NCBI GenBank assembly: GCA_964509615.1
Contig: CAZDXZ010000005.1
Span: 1-44,399 of the forward strand
Length of the DNA stretch: 44,399 nucleotides
Direction: 5' to 3'
Origin: an uncultured Dehalococcoidales bacterium
GTDB lineage: Bacteria; Chloroflexota; Dehalococcoidia; GIF9; UBA5629
Numbering within the stretch: the first letter of the stretch is position 1; each line of letters starts with the position of its first letter. Positions 11,055 through 29,185 of the stretch are shown piece by piece. The notes beneath the pieces are model-generated. The model did not search any database. It worked only from the letters and a program-made list of their open reading frames with translations, and had not been told where the DNA came from. Made by a program: the position numbers and the translations under genes.

Positions 11055-12824
11055 TCAGACCTTTGTGTAGAAACCGTGGGGATCGAATAGTCTGACCATC
11101 ATCTTTTCCTCATACGATGGAAGTTCGATCTTCTCCAGACGCGGCGCCACCTCCAGCTCCCAGCCCACCATGCGTTTTATGCCCCTGATAGCCTCGTCCT
11201 CCCTGATGGCCGTCCCGTAGGGTATATAAGAGGTCAGCACCAGCGTATCCTTGCCTTCGGGCTTCTCGAAGATGCCCACATCCGTGACCAGCGTCCTGAC
11301 ATTTTTACCCGGATAGGTTATATATGAAACATCCTTGATCAGCCTCTCCCTGCCGGCGGGGGCAAATGCTATGGTTTCGCGGCAGGAGCTGACCACGTCG
11401 TTGGCGCCGCCCGACCCGACGATGTAATAAACGTGGGGTATCTTGGTGGAGTTGCCGTTGCCGTGCCGGTCGATCTGGGCCGCGCCGAGGACCCCCAGGC
11501 AGTTGTTGCCCGCGCCTCCGGCCAGGACGCCCAGGGCTGTCTCAATATTGGAGAGCATCTTACAGGAATACAGGTTGTGCATGCTGAAGCCCGTGGGGTC
11601 CGAGGGCACCGGCATATAGCCGTACATGCCATTCTCCGCCACCAGCTCTGCATCGTACTTCATGCCTTTCAGCCGGTAGACCGCCATCCAGGCGGCGAGC
11701 TGCGCAAGCCCCACTCCGGCCAGCAAGGTCCTGTAGCCCTTTGTCTGACAGAGTCTGGCTATATGCCTGCTGCCCGCTATGACCATCCTTTCAAGCTGGT
11801 TTGATTCCTTCTGGAACTCTATGCCGGGCACGGCCGCCAGGGTCTCCACGACCCACGAGTGAGGCTTGGCCTTGTCCTTGAGGTAACGCAGCCTATCTTT
11901 GCCGATCTTGTCAAGATATTGCTTGTGGTCCTTACAGTTGAGTATCCACTCCCGGATAAATCCCATGAAGCGCGTTTCATCCATGGAGGCATCCCGGATA
12001 ATGGTGGCGAATTCGTAGTCATCGAAATAGCCTTCGTATTGCGGTATACCGCAGTTGGGCAGGCCTCCGGGATGGGCCCCGTAAGGCACCTCGCAAACGG
12101 CTTTCACCATATAGGCCGGTATGCGGACGAGGTGAGCATGGCTGCGAATATAATCGGTAGGGACAATATGTTCCGCGCTGACGATCACAGCGTGCCTGGC
12201 TGCCCAGGCGCCGAAGGCGTCTATTCCCAGCGGGTAGGGCAATATGGTGTTCCCTGAGCGGTCCGCAGCCAGGCCGTGCACAAACGTGACATCCGGCCTC
12301 AGCGCCCTGAGCAGGCCGGTCTGGCCGCCGCCGAAGGGGGAATCGATGACGCTGAAATCGTTCTTGTTCTCCTCCGCCATGGTGCTGCCGATGAGGGAGC
12401 GTGTGGGTATAAATTCCCAGCCCATGGCGCCCGCCAGCAGGCGCTGCGTGATAGTCAGCATGGTCCAGTTCTCAAACTCCACCGCGCCCGATATGTAGGC
12501 TTTCTGAACCAGCGGATTGGGCCCGGGAGTGGGGTAGGTGTTCCCGGCAAAGCTGGTGACGGCCTTCTTCATCAGTCCCCCGCGGATAAGCGCCAGCAGC
12601 AGGGCTGATACGTAGGGGCTGATAATGGTGAAATCTCCCTTTTTGCCCCAGAACTCACGCACCAGCTGATAAAAAAGAGCACCGCTCCTGCCTGCGAAAT
12701 GTATGGACATGCCGGGACTGACATGATCTCTGACAGCCGCCTCCAGCGAGCAGGTCTTATCTTCCCCTTCGATGGGCGGCAGCTGAAATTTCGTATCGAT
12801 AAAGGCTTTTAATTCATCGTCCAT
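11055..12824 (-). CDS. Family I CoA-transferase, fused alpha+beta (glutaconate CoA-transferase-like)
   Basis: Alpha part: LAGAMG..F.PTRSLIGS, LRPDV, ADRSGN, GAHP. Beta part: AENG (catalytic Glu position), LGAAQIDRHGNGNS, GSGGAND, VTDVG. Confidence 0.82.
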   Translation of the reverse strand: MDDELKAFIDTKFQLPPIEGEDKTCSLEAAVRDHVSPGMSIHFAGRSGALFYQLVREFWGKKGDFTIISPYVSALLLALIRGGLMKKAVTSFAGNTYPTPGPNPLVQKAYISGAVEFENWTMLTITQRLLAGAMGWEFIPTRSLIGSTMAEENKNDFSVIDSPFGGGQTGLLRALRPDVTFVHGLAADRSGNTILPYPLGIDAFGAWAARHAVIVSAEHIVPTDYIRSHAHLVRIPAYMVKAVCEVPYGAHPGGLPNCGIPQYEGYFDDYEFATIIRDASMDETRFMGFIREWILNCKDHKQYLDKIGKDRLRYLKDKAKPHSWVVETLAAVPGIEFQKESNQLERMVIAGSRHIARLCQTKGYRTLLAGVGLAQLAAWMAVYRLKGMKYDAELVAENGMYGYMPVPSDPTGFSMHNLYSCKMLSNIETALGVLAGGAGNNCLGVLGAAQIDRHGNGNSTKIPHVYYIVGSGGANDVVSSCRETIAFAPAGRERLIKDVSYITYPGKNVRTLVTDVGIFEKPEGKDTLVLTSYIPYGTAIREDEAIRGIKRMVGWELEVAPRLEKIELPSYEEKMMVRLFDPHGFYTKV

Positions 12825-12842: not shown

Positions 12843-13256
12843 CTATACCCTGTAGCATATGTCGGGCAGCTTCACACCCGGGTTGGCTTCTCTGACATAG
12901 CGCAATAGCTGGTTGGCCAGGGATACAGTGATGGTGGCGAGCTCATCACCCCTGACCATCCTAATCTTATCACCGCTGTAAAGCGCTCTCAGCCTGGCGG
13001 GGAATTCGTCATCCGATCTGTTAAATACTAAATGAATTTTTACACCCGGGAATACCTCTTTGCACACCGCCCAATCCTCGCCAATACCGGGCTTCACAAC
13101 ATGCCCTCCCAGATAAGCTGCCAGCGCCTCAACGTCCTTGACGTATTCAAGGGGCGCAGCCCGCAGCTTCAGAGCTCCTTTCACCTGCAGCTGGTGGGGG
13201 CTGGTCTTGCCCTCAATGTCCGCCAGGCCGAGCAGCCGGCCGTTCTTATCTTCCAT
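12843..13256 (-). CDS. DUF3786-like protein
   Basis: FPGVKIHLVF..SDDEFPA resembles the FPxVP...DEEFPA pattern of DUF3786, a family often found near acetyl-CoA synthase/corrinoid genes. Confidence 0.6.
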   Translation of the reverse strand: MEDKNGRLLGLADIEGKTSPHQLQVKGALKLRAAPLEYVKDVEALAAYLGGHVVKPGIGEDWAVCKEVFPGVKIHLVFNRSDDEFPARLRALYSGDKIRMVRGDELATITVSLANQLLRYVREANPGVKLPDICYRV

Positions 13257-13333: not shown

Positions 13334-14095
13334 CTAACGAACCTTCAGCCGGAAGAGTATTTCCTGCACTGCCCGGCGAAAACCTGAATCCAGCGGCAGC
13401 GCCGTAAGCGGCTTGCCTTTCACATCCAGGTCGGAGATATTGGGGTCCTCCGGAATGGTGGCAAAGAGCATCAGCCCCGATTTGTCCACGGCCTGTTTGA
13501 ATTCCTCCGGCAGCCCGTTGCGCAGGCGGTTGACAACCAACAGGACGCCACCCTTGATATTGGTGCGTATCTCTTTGCTCAGCTCCTGCAGCCGTATGCA
13601 GGTGTTGAGTCCGCGCATGGTCGGATCGGTCACCGCCAGCAGAAAATCTATATCCTGGGTCGTCTGCCGGCTGATATGCTCGAGTCCCGCCTCGCAGTCC
13701 ATGACCACGTAGTCGTAACTTTTAGCCAGCTTGTCGATGGAGAAGCGTATCATGTGGTTGGCTGCGCAGTAGCAGCCCGGCCCCTCCGGGCGCCCCATGG
13801 CCAGCAGGTCGAACCGGTCCGTCTCAACCAGGGACTCGTGTATGCGGGCGTCCAGAATCTCCTGTTTAGATACGGCCATGGTCAGGCGGCCGGCCTTGAC
13901 CTCGTCGGTCATCTTCTCGCGCGTCCTGCCCACCGTCCCGCTCACATCCACGCCCAGGGCGTCGTTGAGGTTAGTGCTGGGATCAGCGTCAACCGCCAGC
14001 ACCGCACCCTTGCTGGAAAGGAAATCGACCAGTATGGCCGAGATGGCGGTCTTGCCCACGCCGCCCTTTCCGGCGACAGCGATCGTTACGGTCAT
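13334..14095 (-). CDS. cooC: CooC/AcsF nickel-insertion ATPase
   Basis: IAVAGKGGVGKT, VDADP, GPGCYC (Ni-binding CxC), DCEAGLEH. Confidence 0.92.
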   Translation of the reverse strand: MTVTIAVAGKGGVGKTAISAILVDFLSSKGAVLAVDADPSTNLNDALGVDVSGTVGRTREKMTDEVKAGRLTMAVSKQEILDARIHESLVETDRFDLLAMGRPEGPGCYCAANHMIRFSIDKLAKSYDYVVMDCEAGLEHISRQTTQDIDFLLAVTDPTMRGLNTCIRLQELSKEIRTNIKGGVLLVVNRLRNGLPEEFKQAVDKSGLMLFATIPEDPNISDLDVKGKPLTALPLDSGFRRAVQEILFRLKVR

Positions 14096-14098
14096 GCT

Positions 14099-16009
14099 TC
14101 AGATCTCCTTTGTATCCGGCCTGGTACGCCGGTCGGCAGGCACGAGGCTGATCGGCGAAAGCCTTATCACCGCATTATACTCCGCGGGACAGACCAGCTC
14201 ACAACTGCCGCACTTGGTGCACTTGAGCTGGTCAACGACTTTAAGGCCTTTCTCATCGCTGAAGACGGCCTCGGCCGGACAGGCCAGCACGCAGTGATCG
14301 CAGCCCCTGTAACACTTCTCGGGCAGGATGTAATAAGCCGTGAGCTCCTTGCAGACGCGGGCCGGGCAGCGCTTTTCAAGGACATGGGCCTCATATTCCG
14401 CCCGGAAGTACCGTATCGTGGTCAGCACGGGGTTGGGCGACATCCTGCCCAGCCCGCACAGTGCGCCTTCCTTCAGGTCTGCGGCCAGCTCGACCAGCGC
14501 CCCGATCGATTCAGCCGACCCCTTGCCCCGCGTGACATCTTCCAGCACCGAGTGCATATGATAAGTGCCGATGCGGCAGAACGTGCACTTCCCGCAGGAC
14601 TCCTGACGGCTGAAATCCACAAAATATTTAGCCGTATCCACCATGCAGTTGTCCTCATCCATGACGATCACTCCGCCCGAGCCCATGATAGCGCCGGCTT
14701 CCCTCAGGGAATCGAAATCTATCTGCGTGTCCAGCAGACTTTCCGGCAGGCAGCCCCCCGACGGTCCCCCGATCTGCACGGCCTTGAATTGCCTGCCGCG
14801 TTTAATGCCGCCTCCTATATCGTAAACCAGCGTGCGCAGCGAGGTCCCCATGGGCACCTCGGCCAGGCCCGTGTTCTCGAGTTTGCCGGCCAGCGCAAAG
14901 AGCGCCGTGCCGGGGCTGCCGGCCGTGCCCGTATCCCGGAACCGGCGCCATCCCTTTTGCAGAATGGCGGAAACATTGGCCAGTGTCTTAACATTGTTCA
15001 CCAGCGTCGGCCTGCCGTACAGTCCGGCCTGCGCCGGATAGGGTGGGCGGTGCTCGGGCCAGGAACGTCCTCCCTGCATGGCTGCTATCATAGCCGTCTC
15101 CTCCCCGGAGACAAACGCCCCCGCGCCCCTGACCATCTCGATCGTAAAGCTGAACTCCGAATCCAGTATGCGCCTGCCCAGCAGGCCTGCGGCCCGCGCC
15201 TGTTTGAGTGCGATCCTGATCCTCTCTATGGCCAGCGGATACTCCTCTCTGATATAGATATACCCTTTCTTTGCACCCACCGCGCGGCTGGCAATAATCA
15301 TCCCCTCCAGCACCGCGTGCGGATCGCTCTCCAGCAGGACACGGTCCATGAAGGCTCCGGGGTCGCCCTCGTCAGCGTTGCAGATCACGTATTTAGTGTT
15401 GCCCTCCGCCCGGGCGCAGGCTGACCACTTGGCCGCCGTGGGATAACCTGCCCCGCCCAGGCCGCGCAGCCCGGATTTCTCAATCTCCTTTATTACCTGC
15501 CCGGGCTGCATCTCCAGCGCATTGGCCAGGCCCCGGTACCCTCCCGACGCGAGATAGTGTTCAATCTCAAGAGGGGATATGTAGCCGCAGCTGCGCAGCA
15601 GCACACGCGACTGATATTTAAAAATGTCGAGCTCCGGTATGTAAACCGCTTCACCGTTGCCCCCGGCCACCGTCCCCAGCGCCAGTTCAAGGCAGGGGTC
15701 GTCGCCCCGGACGTATCCCTCGACAAGCCGGGGCACGATGGCGGGAGTGGCGTGATGATAGCAGACGGAGAAATCACCCGGTTTGATAATTACCACGAGT
15801 GGCTCCTGGGAACACAGCCCCATACAGCCGACTTCCCATAACCGCACCCTGTCACCCAACCCCTCTATTTCGCGCCGGATAGCCTCCAGGACGGCCATTG
15901 AGCCGGCGGCGCGGCCGCAGGTAGCCGTCCCCACCAGAATGTGCGTGATTTTATCTGAATACGGCGGACCTGTCTTATTTTGAGAGAGAGTGCGGATGCT
16001 GCGTTTCAT
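14099..16009 (-). CDS. NuoF/HydB-like NADH- and FMN-binding Fe-S subunit (bifurcating-type architecture)
   Basis: N-terminal thioredoxin-like Fe-S domain (GTATCG...GCMGLC), GLRGLGGAGYPT, CNADEGDPGAFMDR, GAGAFVSGEETA, SCGKCTFCRIG, LCGLG, H..KRCPARVC, C-terminal 2x[4Fe-4S] ferredoxin. Confidence 0.92.
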   Translation of the reverse strand: MKRSIRTLSQNKTGPPYSDKITHILVGTATCGRAAGSMAVLEAIRREIEGLGDRVRLWEVGCMGLCSQEPLVVIIKPGDFSVCYHHATPAIVPRLVEGYVRGDDPCLELALGTVAGGNGEAVYIPELDIFKYQSRVLLRSCGYISPLEIEHYLASGGYRGLANALEMQPGQVIKEIEKSGLRGLGGAGYPTAAKWSACARAEGNTKYVICNADEGDPGAFMDRVLLESDPHAVLEGMIIASRAVGAKKGYIYIREEYPLAIERIRIALKQARAAGLLGRRILDSEFSFTIEMVRGAGAFVSGEETAMIAAMQGGRSWPEHRPPYPAQAGLYGRPTLVNNVKTLANVSAILQKGWRRFRDTGTAGSPGTALFALAGKLENTGLAEVPMGTSLRTLVYDIGGGIKRGRQFKAVQIGGPSGGCLPESLLDTQIDFDSLREAGAIMGSGGVIVMDEDNCMVDTAKYFVDFSRQESCGKCTFCRIGTYHMHSVLEDVTRGKGSAESIGALVELAADLKEGALCGLGRMSPNPVLTTIRYFRAEYEAHVLEKRCPARVCKELTAYYILPEKCYRGCDHCVLACPAEAVFSDEKGLKVVDQLKCTKCGSCELVCPAEYNAVIRLSPISLVPADRRTRPDTKEI

Positions 16010-16021
16010 CGGTGATCCGTA

Positions 16022-16471
16022 TTACCCTTCCGCTTCCGGCTCCGCCTTGATCTCCACCAGGGCCTGCTCCACTCCGGGCGGTGTCATTCTCGGGTAAACC
16101 TTGTTCTCAATTGTCACGACCGGCGCCAGCGCGCAGCAGCCGATACAGGCAACCCTTTCCAGGCTGAATTCGCGGCCCTCGCTGGTTTCTCCCACTTCGA
16201 TCTTCAGCTCGCGCGCCATGGCCTCCAGCACGAGCTGTCCGCCCGCCAGGTGGCAGGCCGTTCCCATGCACACCCTGACCGGCTTCCTGGCCGGTGGTGT
16301 GAAGCGGAACTGGTTATAGAAGGTGGCCACCCCCCACACGGTAGCCGAAGATATATTGAGCGATTTCGCGGCCTCGAGCATGGCTTGACTGGAGAGATAC
16401 CCTTCCCTGGACTGTATCTGCTGGAGGATATCTATGAGGTGGCGCGGTTGGCGGCGCGAATGGTAACCCAT
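16022..16471 (-). CDS. NuoE/HydC-like [2Fe-2S] subunit
   Basis: VATFYNQF, VCMGTACHL, ACIGCCALAPV; ATG at 16471 overlaps the acsC stop (TGATG). Confidence 0.9.
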   Translation of the reverse strand: MGYHSRRQPRHLIDILQQIQSREGYLSSQAMLEAAKSLNISSATVWGVATFYNQFRFTPPARKPVRVCMGTACHLAGGQLVLEAMARELKIEVGETSEGREFSLERVACIGCCALAPVVTIENKVYPRMTPPGVEQALVEIKAEPEAEG

Positions 16472-17838
16472 CACCCTTTCCAGCTTTTGACCAGTCCGGG
16501 CAGATATGCGGGTATTTCATTGGCATCGCCCGGCCCTACGATTATCTCCCAGTCGGGCAGGGCCTCGGTGAGCTCGTTGCGGATGCGGGCCACTTTGCCG
16601 GGAATAACCAGGCGGCGGTGTTTGACCATCCCTTCCACGCCGCATTTCCTGATGAATGGGGCTATGCTGTCGCCGCCGAACTTGCCGGCAGCCCAGGCCG
16701 TGAGCACACCCAGCCCACCCGTCTCCTTGACGCACAGCCAGGAAGGCACCTTGCTGGCCTCGATCTCCGATGCCACTATGAAGTACGTCAGCGCCCAGTT
16801 GGTCGTTACCAACACGGGCGAGGCAGAGTCAGGATCGTTAATGGGATAAACTTTTTCCTCCATGGACATGGGCATGCGGGGATCGGTATATATGTTCAGC
16901 CTCTGCACCAGCAGGGGCAGCAGTGTATGCTCGTCGATATCCGAGAGAACGATGATTCCCGCGTACTTGGGTATGTACATGGCCGCCAGCATCATTTCAC
17001 GACTTTTATCCGCAGTCATGAAGCAGGGAAAGGCAACCGTTGGATATCCCAGCAGCCGGAAGCCCTGCTTGAGCGCCGCCCTGCGGATAAGAGTCTGATC
17101 TCGTAAGGCGGACTGCATGTCCTTCGAGCCGGGGTCCAGCACGACGTCCTCTATGCCTGCATCCCGCAGGCGCGTGGCGATCGGCACCAGCGATTCAACG
17201 CCGGCAGCCCTGACGGCTATGGGCGCGGGCCTTGCTTTAACTGCGTTGATTATTTTGTCCAGGTTGTGCACAGTAACCGGATAGAGCAGCGGCCGCCTGT
17301 CCGCACACATTTCATGCGCGGCCAGCAGGGCATCGCTGTCTTCGTTGATCAATATCAGCGGGCAGTCCACTGCGGAAAGAGCCTTCTTTACCAGGCCGGC
17401 GAACCTGTTGCGGTCGCCCGATTTGCACTGCAGCGCCAGCAGGTCCGCCCTGAGAGTTTTGCCCACCCAGCTGTACTGAAGGTCTTTCAGCTTTTTGATC
17501 TTCTCGTCAACAACTTTGTCGGGAAGGTCATCCGAGACCAGCACGGCGATGCCCGGCTGATGAACGAAGGTCTTCTCATGACGATAGAGGACGGTCTCAT
17601 CGCCGATTACCAGGGCGCCGGCTCCGGTGCCTATGGTAACCGGCCGGATGGGCGGCGCCAGCGCGTCCTCTAGCTCGCTCCTGACCTCCGCGGCAAGATA
17701 GGAGCACTTATCGATGGCAATGCCGCCGGAAGCCAGCTTCATGGCGAAAGCGAAGCATGTGGGCAGGCCGCATTCCTTGCAGTTCTTCTTGCCGCCCTCA
17801 GGCAGGCGCTTGACTATATCCGTACCTTTGATCGCCAA
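16471..17838 (-). CDS. acsC: Corrinoid iron-sulfur protein large subunit (AcsC/CdhE)
   Basis: NCKECGLPTCFAFA...KC [4Fe-4S] motif, RHEKTF, NIYTDP, VLVTTNWALTYF, VLTAWAAGKF; TTG start. Confidence 0.95.
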   Translation of the reverse strand: MAIKGTDIVKRLPEGGKKNCKECGLPTCFAFAMKLASGGIAIDKCSYLAAEVRSELEDALAPPIRPVTIGTGAGALVIGDETVLYRHEKTFVHQPGIAVLVSDDLPDKVVDEKIKKLKDLQYSWVGKTLRADLLALQCKSGDRNRFAGLVKKALSAVDCPLILINEDSDALLAAHEMCADRRPLLYPVTVHNLDKIINAVKARPAPIAVRAAGVESLVPIATRLRDAGIEDVVLDPGSKDMQSALRDQTLIRRAALKQGFRLLGYPTVAFPCFMTADKSREMMLAAMYIPKYAGIIVLSDIDEHTLLPLLVQRLNIYTDPRMPMSMEEKVYPINDPDSASPVLVTTNWALTYFIVASEIEASKVPSWLCVKETGGLGVLTAWAAGKFGGDSIAPFIRKCGVEGMVKHRRLVIPGKVARIRNELTEALPDWEIIVGPGDANEIPAYLPGLVKSWKG

Positions 17839-17849
17839 AGTATTCTCCT

Positions 17850-19079
17850 TTAATCAGGTAGTTTAACCTCGCCCCTGACCCAGGGATGCCCTGCGCGGTC
17901 GAGGAAGGCCGCCAGCTCTTCAACGCCGGCAACATCGTTCTCCGTAGCTATTTTGCCCTGAAGGTCCATGGGGCAGGCGTCCCGGTACATCTCCTGTATG
18001 ACGCGCGGCATCCAGACGATGCGGTACCATCCGCCATCAGCCTTGAGAAAGCTGGGGGAGCGCAGGTACTCCAGGGCAATGCCCAGAAAGCCCTCTACCT
18101 GCCTTCCTCCGCTGGTGTCTCCGGCCATGGTGGTGAATGATGCGCCCGACACGGTATCCCCCTCGAAATCGCGGTTAACGATACCGAAGGCATCAACCTC
18201 AGGTATGTAAAAGCAGATCGCCTGGAAACACCCGCATGAAGTATGCGGATAGCCGAAGGCGCTGTGTAAAAAGACCCTGTCGTAGGCGCCCATGGACTTC
18301 TCCAGCGCCAGCTTATCGGCGCCGCTGTATTCGCCCCGCACCGCATCGATGATGTCACCCTTGACCACGGCCTGTATCGGCCCCTCCGGGTCCATCTGGT
18401 AGGCTGCCTTGCCGTCGAACCAGTTGATGGCGCCGCAGTTGGCGATGCGCTCCGGCGTTATGCAGCAGATATGGGTGGGGGCGAAGCTCTGGCAGAGGGC
18501 GCAGCTGTAGAATTCCTGCACATCGGCCTCGCGCAGGCCCCTGATTTTCTCATCGCGCGCACGGTAAACGCTTACGGCCCCGGGTAGAAGCGCCTCAACC
18601 TTCTTGGGATCGGTGACAAAGGTGACCTGTATCTTCTCGATGATCTCTATCTCCGATGTATAAAGGAATATCAGTATCTCTCCCAGTATCCTGAGCGACT
18701 TCAGCCCTTTGTTATAGGAGGCCTTATTGAGCCGCATCCAGACGTCCTGGCGCTGGTTCATATGATAAAAGCCTTCGATGTAGTTCAGGTAAAGGTGCAG
18801 CCGCCGTTCCAGGACAGCCTCTATGTCCTTTTCCAGGCGGGCGCCGGCGACGTCCACCAGCACGGCCACCGGCTGGCTGCTGCCCTCTTCCATATCGGGG
18901 AGGTCCGGGCCGATTACCTCCACCTTCTCATGTGTTATCTCTTCGGGTTTCCTGATGGAGACCAGCTCGAACTTGTTTTTTACATTGGGCCCACCCAGCT
19001 CCACGCGTATATCCGCCTTGCGGATAACCTCTCCCTCATACTGGGGACCGATATCGACCGGGAATGTTCCGTCAGCCAT
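17850..19079 (-). CDS. cdhC: Acetyl-CoA synthase, archaeal-type short beta subunit (CdhC/AcsB)
   Basis: FPVDIGPQYEGEVIRK N-terminus; A-cluster ligands SCALCQSFAPTHIC...NCG and PHTSCGCF intact; 409 aa with no bacterial N-terminal domain. Confidence 0.93.
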   Translation of the reverse strand: MADGTFPVDIGPQYEGEVIRKADIRVELGGPNVKNKFELVSIRKPEEITHEKVEVIGPDLPDMEEGSSQPVAVLVDVAGARLEKDIEAVLERRLHLYLNYIEGFYHMNQRQDVWMRLNKASYNKGLKSLRILGEILIFLYTSEIEIIEKIQVTFVTDPKKVEALLPGAVSVYRARDEKIRGLREADVQEFYSCALCQSFAPTHICCITPERIANCGAINWFDGKAAYQMDPEGPIQAVVKGDIIDAVRGEYSGADKLALEKSMGAYDRVFLHSAFGYPHTSCGCFQAICFYIPEVDAFGIVNRDFEGDTVSGASFTTMAGDTSGGRQVEGFLGIALEYLRSPSFLKADGGWYRIVWMPRVIQEMYRDACPMDLQGKIATENDVAGVEELAAFLDRAGHPWVRGEVKLPD

Positions 19080-19172: not shown

Positions 19173-21260
19173 TTAATGTACGACTTCTTCCAGCGTGACC
19201 TGAGAGGGATAGGTGCCGACCAGGGTGGGCAGAGACAGCACGGGTTTCTCGCTCCAGCCGACCCCGTTCAAATAGGCCTGCAATTCCTTTTTGAAGAAAA
19301 TGGGTATATCAGAGCTCTTCCTGACAAACAGGTGGACATCGTCCGGCAGCTTTCCGAAATACTGCTTGTGCAGGCCGATATAGTGTGTAAGCTTGGTAGC
19401 CCTGCCCTGGGGTGTATCGTTCCTGCGCATGCACAGCTTGGCCAGCGCCACGACAGCCGAACCCCTGTCGGGCAAAAGGTTGATCAGATGCTGGGGTGAA
19501 GGCTCCCCTGTATCCACGAGCTTCTTTTCGCGGCCGTCCATCACGCTCCAGTCTGTCTCACCTTCCCTGCTCAAATAGAGCCGGCCATACCGGATGCAGC
19601 GTGGGCCGACCACGACGGGTATGCCCAGGCGGTTACAACCGGTGGCCAGGGCCAGCTCATCGGCGCCGTTGGCGCCCCAGGCCAGCGCGCAGGCCCCCAC
19701 CCGGTTGAGTATGTAATCAGCCACAACCTCGTAGTTGGCTCTCAACGGCAGGGCGGCAAAGATGTTGGCTATTTTTATGGCCGCGCCGCTGATATGCGAC
19801 GCCGAGACGCCGGAGCCTATATTGATCACACCTCCGGCATCGAAATCGGCGGGATACCTTTCATAGATGGACTTCCCCTCGGCGTCTGTTTTAAGGGCCG
19901 CAGCAATAGCGGAATCCCCGGCCAGCGCGACCACGTACTTGCGCTTTGCGAATTCCTCGGCCACATCCGCTATATCATCGGGCGAACCGGGATAGTTCGA
20001 TCCCCCAACGATGGCGATGACACCCGGTATAGTCCCCAGCACCAGCGGCGCCCCCACCTTCCTTATCTCGGTATCCATGACCGGCCCGCGGCCTACCCTC
20101 ATCCTGCCCTTTCCCCGGTAAAAATCATCTCCCGCCGGCAGGGCCTTCTTGCGGCCGGCCGAAAGCTTCAGGGCCGCCTCCACAGCCACTGCGGCGGCCT
20201 TCACGGGGTCGGGCAGCAGAATGCCCCGTCCCCGCTGCAGCTCCACCAGGACCTGCTCGGTATCTCTGGCTGATTGGTCGTCCAGTCCGTAAGAGGCCAG
20301 CTCATCGGTGGCAATGAAGGCGGCGCCCCCGGCTATGGCCAGATCTGCTACGTCGGAAAGCAGGTTGTTGCCGCCGCACATTACCACATCCACCAGCCCC
20401 GCCCTTAAAATGGCCGGCAGCATAGCCTGAGTCCCGGCTATCCCGGCGGCGGGGTAATAGCGCACCAGGTCATGGGCCACCGCTCCGATGCCCAGTACCG
20501 CCACTTTCCCCTCCATCCCGCTGTCCCTGAGGTAGTCGGCCAGGCAGACGGCTGCCAGCGTATCGTTACCCGTAATCAATATGACAGGTCCGTTTAAATC
20601 CACCTCCGCCCAACCTACCTTTACCAGGGCGGTGTCGCCGGTGGAGCAGGGAAAGCCGAATCCCGAAATAGCGGCCAGCTCTGTCGCCTCCATAGCAACC
20701 TGGGCCAGCATCGAGGCGTGCATGGACCTGGACTCCAGGTCTATTGACGCCGTTTCCAATCCGGGAGCGGAAGAAGCCAGCAGCAGGGCAAGCTGTTCCT
20801 CGACATAACATAAAATGCTTTCCAGGTCGCCTAACAGAGTTGGTTTGAAGCCCAATACCGTGCGCATGTGGGGCGCTTCGATGCCGACCCTTTCGCCAAG
20901 GTCGAGCGGCATATCCCTGCCCTTGCGGTCCACCAGATAATCAATGGTCCGGCGCGCCTGCGCCAGGGACTGGGCCAGGCCTTCGCAGCAGGCGCCCAGG
21001 GTGAGGCAGGCCCGCATAGCCGCAGTGTCAGCGCCGCAGGCGCCTTTTCTGCCCTCAGTGAGGTCGCATTCCCCGTAGGTGCAGAGGCCGCATTTGTCGG
21101 CTACCGGCACGTGAAAGGGCTTCCATGTCCTGAAAAGCCTGTGGTCCCAGTTTCTCAGCTCCGCGATCCCGGGCAGAGGCGTATGCCCGACTGGCTCCCA
21201 GCCGTCCTCGGCCCTGATGAACTCATCCGCCTCCCGTTTCTGCCTCTCGTTTCTCACCAC
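19173..21260 (-). CDS. cdhA: Archaeal-type CO dehydrogenase alpha subunit homolog (CdhA), predicted catalytically inactive
   Basis: WEPVGHTPLPGIAELRNWD, CxxCTYGxCDL...GACG, GRGPV.D.EIR.VGAPLVLGTIPG, YILNRVGAC..AWGA, AKLCMR.NDT..GR..KLTHY. The C-cluster ligands are substituted (see findings). Confidence 0.88.
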   Translation of the reverse strand: MVRNERQKREADEFIRAEDGWEPVGHTPLPGIAELRNWDHRLFRTWKPFHVPVADKCGLCTYGECDLTEGRKGACGADTAAMRACLTLGACCEGLAQSLAQARRTIDYLVDRKGRDMPLDLGERVGIEAPHMRTVLGFKPTLLGDLESILCYVEEQLALLLASSAPGLETASIDLESRSMHASMLAQVAMEATELAAISGFGFPCSTGDTALVKVGWAEVDLNGPVILITGNDTLAAVCLADYLRDSGMEGKVAVLGIGAVAHDLVRYYPAAGIAGTQAMLPAILRAGLVDVVMCGGNNLLSDVADLAIAGGAAFIATDELASYGLDDQSARDTEQVLVELQRGRGILLPDPVKAAAVAVEAALKLSAGRKKALPAGDDFYRGKGRMRVGRGPVMDTEIRKVGAPLVLGTIPGVIAIVGGSNYPGSPDDIADVAEEFAKRKYVVALAGDSAIAAALKTDAEGKSIYERYPADFDAGGVINIGSGVSASHISGAAIKIANIFAALPLRANYEVVADYILNRVGACALAWGANGADELALATGCNRLGIPVVVGPRCIRYGRLYLSREGETDWSVMDGREKKLVDTGEPSPQHLINLLPDRGSAVVALAKLCMRRNDTPQGRATKLTHYIGLHKQYFGKLPDDVHLFVRKSSDIPIFFKKELQAYLNGVGWSEKPVLSLPTLVGTYPSQVTLEEVVH

Positions 21261-21269
21261 GCGAGCCTC

Positions 21270-22175
21270 CTATATCTTGCCCTCGATCGCTTCCTTAAGT
21301 AACCGGCAGTTTTCCGGATGCCTGAGCACCAGTATATCCGCGCCGGCCATAAGCAGGCTCAGGGCGGTAATGCTCTCCCAGAGCAAGCCCTGCTCGCCAT
21401 TTGAGCGGGCCTGGTTGGTCTTCCAGCACTCGCGGCCCAGGTCGGCAATAACAGGCATCTGCATGGCCACGTCACCATATACAACACCTACCTGCCTGGT
21501 TCGCTCCATGATGGTGAAGCTGTACTCCATCCCGTAACCCAGCGCCGAGCTGAGCGGGTCGATGACTATTCGTTCCGGAGGGAGCTGCTTGAGCAATTTC
21601 ACATTGAGTTCCTTCTCAAGATTGATATCTATGGGGGTCTGGGCAATGATGCAGTGCCCGTTGTCGGCCACCGCCTTCAGTATAGCCTCGTAATTCTCCT
21701 TGACGGCCGGGCCCAACAGCAGATTATTTTCTTTGCAGGCCTCCGCAACGGCCGTCAGCACCTCGACATCCTTCTTATCATCCCCGCAGCCGTATACTAT
21801 CAAAGGCGCATCCAGTTCCCGGGACATCCGTTTGACCAGCGCAGCCGCCTCCGCCGGTGCTTTGTTCGCGCCGTTGGGATCGGTGCCCTCCAGGTGCAGG
21901 CAAACCAGGTCCGCGCCCAGCTTCAAACAGAGAGCGCCCCACTTGACCGGGTCATCGACCACATGCCTGAAAGGTTCCACGGCGGCCCCGGCCCAACCGG
22001 CGGCCCCATTATCGTCCACCTCGAGCGCCACCACCGGCCTGTTGGCGGCGCTGCCTTCGAAATGGTGCAGGGGCAGTATATTGCTGCCCCCGATCTTTAC
22101 GCTTTTCCCGCCACTGCCAAGGGTGATCTCTTTGACCCTGCCCGTATACTTTTCCAGAGGCGCTTTATATTCCAT
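21270..22175 (-). CDS. acsD: Corrinoid iron-sulfur protein small subunit (AcsD/CdhD)
   Basis: YTGRVKEITLG, KIGG..ILP, TPIDINL.KELN, IDP...ALGYGMEYS, GADILVLRHP. Confidence 0.93.
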   Translation of the reverse strand: MEYKAPLEKYTGRVKEITLGSGGKSVKIGGSNILPLHHFEGSAANRPVVALEVDDNGAAGWAGAAVEPFRHVVDDPVKWGALCLKLGADLVCLHLEGTDPNGANKAPAEAAALVKRMSRELDAPLIVYGCGDDKKDVEVLTAVAEACKENNLLLGPAVKENYEAILKAVADNGHCIIAQTPIDINLEKELNVKLLKQLPPERIVIDPLSSALGYGMEYSFTIMERTRQVGVVYGDVAMQMPVIADLGRECWKTNQARSNGEQGLLWESITALSLLMAGADILVLRHPENCRLLKEAIEGKI

Positions 22176-22189
22176 AAGGATTTCCTCGA

Positions 22190-23068
22190 CTAACTCTCCA
22201 GCCAGGCGTGCGAATAAAGCGCATCCCCCATCAATACCCTGGCTGTTTTCACATAATTCTTTTCACTCTCGGGCAGCACATCGGCGTCGACCGGTTCTCC
22301 ATCCATTACCCTGTGGATAAGCACCCTTATATCGTTCAGCGAGCCCCGGTTGAGGTCAATCAATTCCTGATCGAGGACGTCTGCAATAGCGGAGTAAAGT
22401 CCGTTTCTTTCCAGCATAACCATATAAGTGCGGTTAAGTATGCCGCGCAGAGGAGCGGGTGTGCCGTTGGATACATTTGAAAGGCCGACCACCGATTTCA
22501 CGCCCGGCAGCAGGTCGGGCAAGATGCGGATGAATTCCAGCGCCTCGCGCACTTGTTTCTGGTCGGCGCTGACGGGCAGTACTATCGGGTCCACCCAGAT
22601 ATCCTCGTTATCGATGCCCAGGCCGTTAGCATAGGCCACCGTCTCCATGATGCTCTCGACCCTGGAATCGACATCGGGCGGGCAGCCCTGGTCAGTGATA
22701 ACCGAGATAACCACCTGGGTGTGGTATTTTACCGCCTGCGGCATCATCCTTTCCCTGCTTTCAGTTTTGCCCGACGCCGAGTTCAGCAGGGCGCGCCTCC
22801 GGCACAGCTTCAATCCCGCCTCCATGGCCAGGGGATTCATCGTATCCAGGGATATAGGCAGGTCGCTTACCGCCTGTACGGCATTTACCAGCCACGAGGC
22901 CACCTCTTCGGGATCTTTACGCGCCGGGCCCAGGTTCAGGTCGAGATAGTCGGCGCCGGCCCGCGCCTGCGCCCTGGCCAGCTCCTGTATGGGCACAATA
23001 TCCCTGTTCCTGACAGCCTCGCTGATTACCTTGGCTATGATATGGATGTTTTCGCCTATTAAGATCAT
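22190..23068 (-). CDS. acsE: Methyltetrahydrofolate:corrinoid Fe-S protein methyltransferase (AcsE, pterin-binding)
   Basis: MILIGENI, GADYLDLNLG, SLDT, LLNS, IWVDP, GLSNVS; first gene of the ACS cluster. Confidence 0.88.
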   Translation of the reverse strand: MILIGENIHIIAKVISEAVRNRDIVPIQELARAQARAGADYLDLNLGPARKDPEEVASWLVNAVQAVSDLPISLDTMNPLAMEAGLKLCRRRALLNSASGKTESRERMMPQAVKYHTQVVISVITDQGCPPDVDSRVESIMETVAYANGLGIDNEDIWVDPIVLPVSADQKQVREALEFIRILPDLLPGVKSVVGLSNVSNGTPAPLRGILNRTYMVMLERNGLYSAIADVLDQELIDLNRGSLNDIRVLIHRVMDGEPVDADVLPESEKNYVKTARVLMGDALYSHAWLES

Positions 23069-23803: not shown

Positions 23804-25723
<1,920 letters not shown>

Positions 25724-27591: not shown

Positions 27592-28953
27592 CTAGGAAGA
27601 ACGGCGGGATTTCAACATCAGGCGGATGTCTTCGATGGACTTGCTGAGCTGGGAATCGGAGCCTATGTTCGTGGCAATCCTGTCATAGCCGTGTATAACG
27701 GTTGAATGGTCACGATTGCCGAGAACCCTGCCGATCTCGGCAAGGTTGTTGTGATTCTGCTGGCGTAAAAGGTACATAACTATATGGCGTGCGCGGGAGG
27801 TCTTAAGGTCTCTCTTTTTGCCCGTTATGTCATCCGGCGCGATTGCGAAATAGTCGGCGACCGCGTTGATAATATCGGCGGCGGTATAATGGCCGCTGCT
27901 CTGCCTGGAAGCAGCTATCATGTCGTTGAGAAACGTCTTGACGGCGCTGACGTCGAGCGTCGTATCGTTCATGCGGGAATAGGTGGAAAGACGGATGAGC
28001 GCACCTTCCAGGACCCTGACGCTTCCATGGAAGTTGGTCGCCAGGAAATTGAGCACATCGGCATCGAACCTTATTTGCAGCAGTGACGATTTAAGATCGA
28101 GTATAGCCAGGCGCGTTTTATGGTCGGGAGGATAGATATCGGCCACCAGACCCCCTTCCATGCGGGAGCGCAGCCGTACATTAAGTGATTCGATCTCTTT
28201 GGGAGGTCGATCGCAAGAAATTACGACCTGGCGGTTATCTGCTAAGAAGTCGTTAATAATGTGAAAAATGCATTCCTGTGTTTGATTTTTCCCGCTGAGG
28301 AACTGTATATCATCCAGCAGGAAAACCTCGACCCTGCTGAACTTACCCCGGAATTCCTCGGCCTTTTTATTGCGAATGGCGATAATGAACTCATTGGTGA
28401 ATTGCTCGGCGCTCATATACAGGACATTTAACCCTCTGGACCTGGCTGCCTGTCCTATCGCATGCAGAAGATGGGTTTTGCCGGTGCCGGTGCCGCCGTA
28501 TATATAAAGGGGATTGAAAACCCCTCCGGGATTCTCAGCTATCTCAAGCGAGGCGGTATAAGGTAACAGGTTACACTCTCCCGAAACATATGTATCGAAG
28601 GTGAACTTAGTATTGAATCCGGTTGTCCTGGTTGAAGCTGGACGTTCTTTAACGCTGGTTCCACCGTCGGGCTGTAACCTGTTTCTAGCGGGAGCAGGTT
28701 CCCGGTTGACAGCCTGGACCTGGAAAACAACTTCGGTAATCCTGCCAGTGATGCTGGAAAGTATTCTGCAGACGACAGAATAGAGCCGCCCTTTAAGCCA
28801 TTCGGCGATAAAGACAGAGGGAACAGCTACGGTAAAAACGCCGTTGTCGTAGTCGATTCCCCTCGAATCCTTGAGCCACGTATTATAATTTGCTTTGCTG
28901 ACCTGGATCTGAAGTTCACCCAGGGCCGCCTGCCACATTTTATCAGCTTGCAT
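27592..28953 (-). CDS. dnaA: Chromosomal replication initiator DnaA
   Basis: Start ATG 28953 (AAGAGG upstream); NPLYIYGGTGTGKTHLL, LLDDIQFL, RLRSR..GGL, ARHIVMYL, RDHSTVIH. Confidence 0.97.
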   Translation of the reverse strand: MQADKMWQAALGELQIQVSKANYNTWLKDSRGIDYDNGVFTVAVPSVFIAEWLKGRLYSVVCRILSSITGRITEVVFQVQAVNREPAPARNRLQPDGGTSVKERPASTRTTGFNTKFTFDTYVSGECNLLPYTASLEIAENPGGVFNPLYIYGGTGTGKTHLLHAIGQAARSRGLNVLYMSAEQFTNEFIIAIRNKKAEEFRGKFSRVEVFLLDDIQFLSGKNQTQECIFHIINDFLADNRQVVISCDRPPKEIESLNVRLRSRMEGGLVADIYPPDHKTRLAILDLKSSLLQIRFDADVLNFLATNFHGSVRVLEGALIRLSTYSRMNDTTLDVSAVKTFLNDMIAASRQSSGHYTAADIINAVADYFAIAPDDITGKKRDLKTSRARHIVMYLLRQQNHNNLAEIGRVLGNRDHSTVIHGYDRIATNIGSDSQLSKSIEDIRLMLKSRRSS

Positions 28954-29117
28954 TTGCCTCTTAACCGTACTATATTTTTGCTCGGGTTTCCCGTAAAAAA
29001 GAAAAAAAAGTCCCACTATGAAACGATAAATGCAGACTTTTTGTTTAGTTAGTGTATAAGCCGTTGAAACTTTAATGTCTGCCGGATATGCCGCGGTCCT
29101 CTTCCCAAACCGTAGAT

Positions 29118-29185
29118 AGATTACCACAGGGGTCTTCGGCAGTGTCAATGGTTATTTTGACATAACGACAAAAAACTTTTAATTT
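29118..29185. promoter_or_regulatory. Back-to-back -35 hexamers for divergent dnaA and fmt promoters
   Basis: TGTCAA (29143-29148)-N8-TTGACA (29157-29162). Plus-strand TAATTT at 29180-29185 (N17); minus-strand TGgTAATCT at 29126-29118. Confidence 0.4.

Follow-up and report, generated by a model that had tools for sequence, protein, structure and literature searches.

An acetyl-CoA synthase operon on a 44,399-nucleotide contig of an uncultured Dehalococcoidales bacterium (GenBank assembly GCA_964509615.1, contig CAZDXZ010000005.1; this whole stretch of DNA is referred to as the window) encodes a homolog of CdhA, the carbon monoxide dehydrogenase (CODH) subunit of the archaeal-type acetyl-CoA decarbonylase/synthase (ACDS), in which every canonical ligand of the catalytic C-cluster is replaced. 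The protein, designated CdhA* here, must serve another purpose than a canonical CO dehydrogenase, yet it is kept intact under selection. CdhA* may be best explained as a non-CODH subunit that docks and gates a CODH-less acetyl-CoA synthase (ACS) and provides its gas path, i.e. as a separate-polypeptide equivalent of the N-terminal domain A1 of bacterial AcsB. On the basis of sequence comparison and of this analogy we assign a probability of about 0.5 to this reading.

Active-site ligands of CdhA*

The gene of CdhA* occupies positions 19173–21260 on the minus strand. It starts with GTG, is preceded by AGGAGG 6 nt upstream and encodes 695 residues. Profile searches give 695.5 bits against TIGR00314 (cdhA), which is under the cut-off of this model (781.3), and 96.6 bits against Pfam Prismane. 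These matches, together with neighbouring genes for subunits of ACS and of the corrinoid iron–sulfur protein, agree with an earlier sequence-only reading of this DNA, which had described an intact 695-residue open reading frame inside an ACS operon. Homology to CdhA extends over the full length of the protein, with phmmer matches to the Protein Data Bank (PDB) sequences 8riu_A (E 2.9e-165), 9c0q_A and 3cf4_A. The AlphaFold2 model (pTM 0.88, mean pLDDT 80, 75-row alignment) has its best Foldseek matches among the CdhA chains of 8riu, 9c0q-t and 3cf4, with TM-scores of 0.87–0.90.

The ligand positions were compared in a MAFFT alignment of 121 proteins, namely CdhA* and its 120 best matches from a search of 5.8 billion proteins. 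Seventeen named positions read CCCCCC/HHH/H/CC/C/C/C/C/K in 69 of the 121 rows and ACGCCC/SQR/N/GA/N/G/D/G/D in CdhA* of the window; among the remaining rows P0103 is partly altered and 51 (the query included) are altered throughout. At the C-cluster ligand positions, which hold one His and five Cys in CdhA, the window protein has N232, G259, A260, N299, G420, D449 and G484, so that none of the six canonical ligands is left. The acid-base residues are replaced as well, by S98, Q101 and R104 in the HxxHxxH stretch and by D534 at the position of the Lys. The span from N232 to the former Lys, which includes G259/A260, N299, G420, D449 and G484, corresponds to 19659–20567 (minus strand). The Cys pair of the type I D-cluster is broken, with A54 in place of the first Cys and C57 alone left. 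Each of the residue swaps listed in the sequence-only reading is visible in the phmmer alignments to 8riu_A, 9c0q_A and 3cf4_A.

The same reading had dismissed a sequencing error because several swaps need more than one nucleotide change. The codons are indeed as stated (GGA at G259 and G420, GAT at D449 and D534), and contigs of four other public runs from four studies cover the gene without a differing letter at the altered codons; the sole variants fall in one run at 19203–19344, in the C-terminal end of the gene. Since four independent runs agree at the altered codons, CdhA* is not a sequencing artefact. Taken together, the alignments support the conclusion that CdhA* is unable to bind a canonical NiFe4S4 C-cluster or a D-cluster.

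Distribution and selection

A locus scan with one genome per species gave 80 loci, nearly all from metagenome-assembled genomes titled Dehalococcoidia or Chloroflexota. The host group guessed in the sequence-only reading, Dehalococcoidia, is correct. Seventy-eight of them have a CdhA in a single open reading frame and were classified; L064 and L069, whose genes are split over two frames, were left out of the classification and of the tree. The maximum likelihood tree has 73 rows and leaves out the fragments L012, L033, L042, L047, L056 and L063; the conservation counts leave out the same fragments and L044. CdhA of the altered type is encoded at 23 of the 78 classified loci and makes up 51 protein clusters in the larger alignment. 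The 23 altered rows form a single group (SH-aLRT 100, stem 0.58) nested in canonical Dehalococcoidia CdhA. The nearest relatives of CdhA* in the tree are canonical Dehalococcoidia genes, which occupy the same operon place between cdhD and cdhC. In a class-wide sample of 401 genomes, 54 have a CdhA match, and nine of these belong by identity to the altered type: eight in the family-level group of the window (the window included) and one in a sister family. The family-level group of the window also has four genomes with canonical CdhA. CdhA* arose recently, within one bacterial family-level lineage.

P0048 (693 aa) stands on the stem of the altered clade in the protein-cluster tree and has no insert; it shows the D/B-cluster pattern of this clade together with G259 and G420, but two of the three His are retained, as are C299, C449 and C484. 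By its sequence it looks like a transitional form, and it may show the order of ligand loss. The closest relative, L004 (93% identity), lies on a 3.8-kb contig binned as Desulfobaccales, the other close relatives being Dehalococcoidia; this placement probably reflects faulty binning, not gene transfer.

Pairwise ratios of nonsynonymous to synonymous substitutions (dN/dS) were calculated by the NG86 method only, and many canonical pairs have dS above 1, which makes their ratios rough. Within the altered clade dN/dS is 0.057–0.189 with a median of 0.12 (100 pairs with dS<1.5), and the canonical median is 0.049 (57 pairs). By halves of the protein the altered clade gives 0.133 for residues 1–372 and 0.068 for residues 383–695, against 0.037 (N-terminal) and 0.026 (C-terminal) in the canonical proteins, where 9 of 12 chosen pairs gave values. 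The C-terminal half (residues 383–695, at 19176–20114 on the minus strand), which comprises Rossmann-like domain 2 and the C-terminal domain, is also the best-conserved part by other measures. The identity between altered and canonical consensus is 0.73 in this half and 0.54 in the N-terminal one, and the mean majority fraction is 0.91 in the altered vs 0.86 in the canonical proteins for the C-terminal half and 0.77 vs 0.81 for the N-terminal half. CdhA* is therefore a constrained protein. Selection on it is about 2.5- to 3.6-fold more relaxed than on canonical CdhA and is tightest in Rossmann-like domain 2 and the C-terminal domain.

All 23 altered loci have open frames, and no disrupted ortholog was found among them. 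The sequence-only reading had named dN/dS near 1 with disrupted orthologs as the mark of a decaying pseudogene; the ratios are far below 1, and its claim that selection keeps the protein agrees with the median of 0.12 and with zero of 23 loci disrupted. Decay or an assembly artefact would account for the ligand loss taken alone, but not for the open frames, for dN/dS of 0.06–0.19, for the four concordant runs or for the ribosome-binding site. This explanation was rejected on the frames, the ratios and the agreement of the runs, and its chance of being right is next to nil.

Cysteine motif, ferredoxin-like insert and epsilon subunit

The motif C57-x2-C60-x4-C65-x9-C75 (21036–21092, minus strand) is a putative B-cluster-like [4Fe-4S] site, and its four Cys are invariant in 23 of 23 altered and 49 of 49 canonical rows. 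Next to them A54 replaces a Cys that is invariant in the canonical rows, and G58 replaces a nearly invariant one. The sequence-only reading had taken C57, C60, C65 and C75 for the four remaining B-cluster ligands and A54 and G58 for the lost D-cluster Cys. According to the motif Cys-X-X-Cys-Cys given for the type I D-cluster in PMC6344411, C57 falls on the second Cys of the D-cluster, and the lost position 58 on the first one of the B-cluster. The assignment thus stands for C60, C65 and C75 and for A54, and has to be changed for C57 and for position 58: three of the four canonical B-cluster ligands are kept in CdhA* together with the adjacent C57. L033 and L040, otherwise canonical CdhA, have Ala at position 58 and keep C57, a pattern which suggests that the neighbouring C57 can serve the cubane. 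It is plausible that the cubane of CdhA* uses C57 in the same manner.

In the alignment CdhA* has a gap at reference residues ~385–470, which correspond to the ferredoxin-like insert of ~70 residues that carries the E- and F-clusters. A 15-residue linker without Cys replaces 84 residues; in the alignments the short linker at the insert site lies at about residues 372–383 (20112–20147, minus strand). The insert has 7–8 Cys in canonical proteins and 4–6 in altered forms of 764 aa, and the 695-aa forms have a linker of 12 or 15 residues in its place, which is a stepwise decay of the insert. In L041, which is of the 764-aa type, the insert retains three Cys of the second motif and the Cys-Pro Cys of the first, that is, the set expected for one cluster. 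P0023 (764 aa, insert with 6 Cys) branches inside the 695-aa clade beside P0004. Because of this placement and of the two linker lengths (12 vs 15), the insert was deleted more than once, or recombination took place.

The epsilon subunit gene cdhB (TIGR00315, 131–139 bits) lies between cdhA and cdhC in canonical Dehalococcoidia loci, sometimes after a DUF166 gene. It is present at 53 of 57 canonical loci and at none of the 23 altered ones, nor did the window's own genome, at 86% completeness, yield one. The DUF166 gene stands between cdhA and cdhB at 22 of 57 canonical loci (e.g. L017:11311-12009) and at 0 of 23 altered ones, and it weakly matches the DfsP (seleno)protein family.

These losses also bear on the question whether CdhA* could still be a CO dehydrogenase whose C-cluster is held by non-canonical ligands. 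Asp and Glu can ligate Fe-S clusters, clade B CODHs with Asp or Glu at one C-cluster Cys position are listed in Table 2 of PMC6344411, and in CdhA* new Cys and His residues lie close by. However, a single change of Cys295 to Glu ends the CO/CO2 chemistry of CODH-V (PMC13240472, citing Jeoung et al. 2022), and CdhA* has none of six canonical ligands, neither kind of acid-base residue, no epsilon subunit and no D-cluster. We consider residual CO dehydrogenase activity of this kind highly improbable.

Other CO dehydrogenases in the same genomes

PF03063 was searched against ten distinct genomes that bear CdhA*, among them a closed chromosome of 2.46 Mb; duplicates were merged for this count (G001=G393, G003=G018, G004=G102, G005=G357). 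CdhA* is the only match in six of the ten; in the other four it is accompanied by a CODH-V-type CooS, in which Glu stands at the position of Cys295. No other protein with the full set of C-cluster ligands was found by this search in the ten genomes, of which that of the window is 86% complete. Another catalytic CODH in the genome was thus rejected as a candidate within these limits. The sequence-only reading had proposed to look for another catalytic cooS or cdhA in the window's genome, and only the CODH-V-type gene came up. This second Prismane gene of the genome (P0122; contig C57, L001:1345-3249, plus strand, 634 aa) gives 713 bits against TIGR01702 and 677 bits against PDB 7b7q and has Ile-Glu at the Cys-Cys site of CODH-II, which places it in the CODH-V type. 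Proteins of this type carry an iron-oxo hybrid cluster and convert neither CO nor CO2, according to PMC13240472. A ferredoxin-like gene precedes P0122, and of the 9 further genomes with CdhA* that were searched, 3 have the same CODH-V type.

In five genomes no match to the Mo-CODH model TIGR02416 exceeded the cut-off (5/5), and each of the five has MetF and Fhs; a lack of MetF like that of Dehalococcoides mccartyi was rejected on this ground. From these searches it follows that the organisms possess ACS together with the corrinoid protein and the methyl branch; an enzyme that interconverts CO and CO2 was not found in them.

Proposed role of CdhA* in docking and gas path

The conservation pattern can be compared with published models of the archaeal complex. 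In ACDS, CdhC contacts the C-terminal domain and Rossmann domain 2 of CdhA, and the latter domain "takes over" the position and function of A1, as stated in the preprint 10.64898/2026.07.07.736967. The best-kept half of CdhA* is exactly this CdhC-contact region. Residues 388–551 also match the A1 region of AcsB, weakly but significantly (NF040764 positions 105–254, E 6.9e-13); weak matches were further obtained by phmmer to AcsB structures (PDB 6yua_A, 9.3e-6; also 6ytt_A) and by BLASTP to AcsB of a Dehalococcoidia genome (E 1e-4, 23% identity). The analogy with A1 drawn in the sequence-only reading is consistent with these weak matches and with the published ACDS models. The least confident stretch of the AlphaFold2 model, residues 556–600, is highly conserved in both clades, which is the pattern expected of a surface that would become ordered only in the complex.

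The following mechanism may be proposed. CdhA* descends from the CODH subunit of an archaeal-type ACDS and would no longer interconvert CO and CO2. One Dehalococcoidia lineage has lost the ligands of the C-cluster, both kinds of acid-base residue (His and Lys), the D-cluster and the epsilon subunit, and the branch of the window has additionally lost the ferredoxin insert with the E- and F-clusters. Purifying selection nevertheless acts on the polypeptide, presumably since the synthase still depends on it. Rossmann-like domain 2 and the C-terminal domain would dock CdhC and do the job of A1, positioning and gating the A-cluster domain and supplying a hydrophobic gas path, which would end at an emptied or remodelled pocket and not at a C-cluster. 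Such a complex would run acetyl-CoA <-> methyl-tetrahydrofolate + CO + CoA, and CO would be either a free product, given off when acetyl-CoA is cleaved, or a free substrate, taken up from outside.

A simpler possibility is that the protein is a structural relic, needed only for folding, stoichiometry or assembly of CdhC-CdhD-CdhE, with no gas path, gating or functional pocket. The kept fold, the relaxed selection and the stepwise loss of accessory parts (epsilon subunit, D-cluster, insert) are what one would expect of such a relic. However, dN/dS of 0.07–0.13 over 695 residues is a strong constraint for a mere spacer, the C-terminal half is more uniform here than in the catalytic relatives, and conserved residues were gained and not just lost. 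A pure relic is accordingly rated improbable, although less so than a surviving CO dehydrogenase.

Residues gained in the altered clade

Several observations weigh against a mere docking and gas-path subunit, and the first of them concerns residues gained. Position 239 is Cys in 47 of 51 altered rows and Pro or Arg in the 70 canonical rows. At position 263, His is found in 49 of 51 altered rows, where canonical proteins have Leu, Ile or Gln, with His in 3 of 70. Position 295 is Cys in 45 of 51 altered rows (Gly, Phe or Ala in the other 6) and Thr, Ile, Val or Ala in canonical ones; position 531 is Cys in 40 of 51 (Asn in the window protein) against Tyr or Met; and position 555 is Cys in 48 of 51 against Ser, Gly or Ala. 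No canonical row (0/70) has Cys at any of these five positions. By the alignment, therefore, C239, H263, C295, C531 and C555 are conserved, clade-specific gains. According to the DSSP assignment of the model, all five stand at C-termini of strands or in first helix turns of both Rossmann-like domains, and the former C-cluster ligands occupy similar strand-end and helix-start places in the same crevice.

An acidic residue, Asp or Glu, stands at position 449 in all altered rows examined, and nearly all have one at position 534 too. At twenty positions each clade conserves a residue of its own, many of these positions lying beside the former ligands, and D233, E535 and R104 are fixed clade-specific switches among them. 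A pure scaffold does not predict the acidic residues at 449 and 534 or the switches. The N-terminal half is likewise under purifying selection (dN/dS 0.13) and does not drift freely. The kept Cys motif 57–75, the one insert cluster of the 764-aa forms and the NuoEF-like genes are hints of a redox role. As to expression, no RNA run stands among the public runs listed, which is neutral on this question.

The new conserved Cys and His and the acidic residues at former ligand positions leave room for a rebuilt metal or redox site, so the verdict "catalytically dead" of the sequence-only reading goes too far: its part concerning the binding of canonical C- and D-clusters stands, and its statement that only one cluster is left is not established, given C239, H263, C295, C531 and C555 and the Asp/Glu at 449 and 534. 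These residues bear on one of the refuting conditions named in that reading, Cys/His ligands at shifted positions.

It is possible, but in our view doubtful, that the old C-cluster crevice was rebuilt around C239/H263/C295/C531/C555 together with D233, D/E449, D/E534 and E535 to hold a different, probably Ni-free, metal centre. To the same tentative degree, the retained cubane, joined in the 764-aa forms by one insert cluster, could link this centre electrically to the NuoEF-like flavoprotein. Its job, a suggestion as uncertain as the other two, could be to deliver electrons (e.g. to activate the A-cluster or the corrinoid protein by reduction) or to carry out a new reaction, and docking of ACS may hold as well.

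Four Cys and one His gained clade-wide at positions where 70 canonical rows have no Cys, their places at strand ends and helix starts of the former-ligand crevice, the acidic residues and the twenty clade-distinguishing positions all argue for such a centre. The four Cys kept in L041 are exactly those of one insert cluster, the NuoE/F-like genes are maintained at 65–92% identity, and the loop before the catalytic Lys bears a cluster ligand in hybrid-cluster proteins, as described in PMC6344411. The conservation is nevertheless incomplete, with N531 in the window protein itself, 11 of 51 rows without Cys at 531 and Gly, Phe or Ala at 295 in 6 of 51. The insert is wholly deleted in the 695-aa forms, at least twice as judged by linker length (12 vs 15), which argues against an essential long electron wire. 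There is no known partner reaction, and the closeness of the five residues in space is presumed. We think it unlikely that a rebuilt Ni-free centre, wired through the cubane to a NuoEF-like NAD(P)H flavoprotein, gives the CODH-less ACS a new activity; if it does, pyridine nucleotides could, for instance, drive a reductive activation of the A-cluster or corrinoid, or the carbonyl group could be made or consumed in a different way. The docking and gas-path subunit remains the preferred explanation of CdhA*.

Comparison with known systems

Canonical CdhA (8riu, 9c0q-9c0t, 3cf4 and other Dehalococcoidia) shares with CdhA* the full-length homology, the predicted fold and the operon place. In contrast to it, CdhA* is without the C-cluster ligands, the catalytic His and Lys, the D-cluster Cys pair and the epsilon partner; it scores below the TIGR00314 cut-off, has a new Cys/His set and, in the 695-aa forms, no E/F insert.

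The N-terminal prismane-like domain A1 of bacterial AcsB is metal-free. By analogy, A1 and CdhA* may both be viewed as cluster-less relatives of a CODH Rossmann-like domain that stay attached to ACS, although CdhA* is a separate 695-residue polypeptide with all CODH domains, a four-Cys cubane motif and a recent rather than ancient origin. In most of the other ACS-positive Dehalococcoidia searched, ACS is of the AcsB type, with an N-terminal domain of its own: about 100 of 149 such genomes, as judged by the matches listed (frames of ~730–750 aa, 37–44% identity).

CODH-family proteins with incomplete active-site signatures were described before. Groups A-4 and A-6 of Ni-CODH, which belong to bacterial clade A and lie in ACS clusters, have one or two ligand changes according to Inoue et al. 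2019 (PMC6344411). These groups and ChCODH-V (PDB 7b7q) lose one or two ligands and keep four cluster Cys, whereas CdhA* loses all. The partly altered P0103 has a pattern like that of A-6, in which N replaces the His and S the Cys1. The hybrid-cluster or CODH-V type, to which P0122 fits, keeps the C-terminal Cys ligands and has Glu at Cys295, in contrast to CdhA* with all its Cys ligands lost.

D. mccartyi has no CO dehydrogenase, and CO is released there from acetyl-CoA cleavage (PMC6113397, citing Zhuang et al. 2014). It is thus, according to that paper, another member of Dehalococcoidia whose ACS works without CO dehydrogenase. The CdhA* genomes differ in that they keep MetF and Fhs, have ACS of the CdhC and not of the AcsB type, and still encode the CODH polypeptide in the form of CdhA*.

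Full-text searches of the literature found no description of a CdhA without any C-cluster ligand; supplements, which lie outside such a search, could list proteins of this kind. The successor of the survey by Inoue et al. and a 2026 marine survey removed sequences with changed C- or B-cluster Cys: to be accepted, a sequence must have the last three Cys of the C-cluster, counted towards the C-terminus, and the four Cys of the B-cluster (PMC8776680, PMC13240472). Sequences like CdhA* were thus filtered out by design. In metagenomic surveys in which cdhA is scored by homology, on the other hand, the same organisms will be counted as having a complete Wood-Ljungdahl pathway, so that the clade has fallen between both approaches.

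CODH/ACS is one of the oldest carbon-fixing machines, and how far ACS needs its CODH partner beyond the supply of CO is an open mechanistic question. CdhA* can be regarded as a natural experiment on it: the protein has lost its catalytic centre and its electron-exit clusters, the operon has lost the epsilon subunit, and the polypeptide is still selected beside an intact ACS. The chemistry of the CODH subunit is thereby set apart from its structural or gating role, which becomes testable. The physiology is also puzzling, as these freshwater and sediment Dehalococcoidia have a full methyl branch and ACS and no CO/CO2 enzyme was found in the searches described above.

Neighbouring genes in the window

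All genes of the operon lie on the minus strand and were assigned by profile search. CdhC, the ACS beta subunit (409 aa, 17850–19079), has all four Cys of the A-cluster cubane and an intact Cys-Gly-Cys motif; cdhA* and cdhC are separate genes with a 93-nt gap, and there is no fusion to ACS. CdhE (gamma, large subunit of the corrinoid Fe-S protein) is encoded at 16471–17838, CdhD (delta, small subunit) at 21270–22175, and an AcsE-like methyl-tetrahydrofolate:corrinoid methyltransferase at 22190–23068. On the other side lie genes for a NuoE-like [2Fe-2S] thioredoxin-like ferredoxin (16022–16474), syntenic in altered and canonical loci, for a NuoF-like flavoprotein (14099–16009) of the FMN/NAD(P)H kind with a 2x[4Fe-4S] tail, supported by synteny as well, and for a CooC/AcsF-like P-loop ATPase of the MinD/ParA family (13334–14095), a putative Ni insertase. 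The CdhD, CdhE, AcsE, NuoE/F-like and CooC-like genes are syntenic across the altered loci with 65–97% identity; among these loci the CooC-like ATPase has 73–96% identity.

The CooC-like gene is followed by genes for a DUF3786 protein (12843–13256) and for a two-domain CoA-transferase of 589 aa (11055–12824). A CoA-transferase occupies this operon place at 11 of 23 altered loci vs 0 of 57 canonical ones, within limited flanks, and it may tie the operon to acyl-CoA or acetate metabolism. At one locus of the altered type, cdhC (L035:11398-12621) reads with one internal stop codon; faulty assembly, a frameshift or recoding of the codon could be the cause. The operon is directly preceded by gyrB (23804–25723, plus strand) and dnaA (27592–29148, minus strand), and since these two genes adjoin it, the operon is placed near the likely replication origin region.

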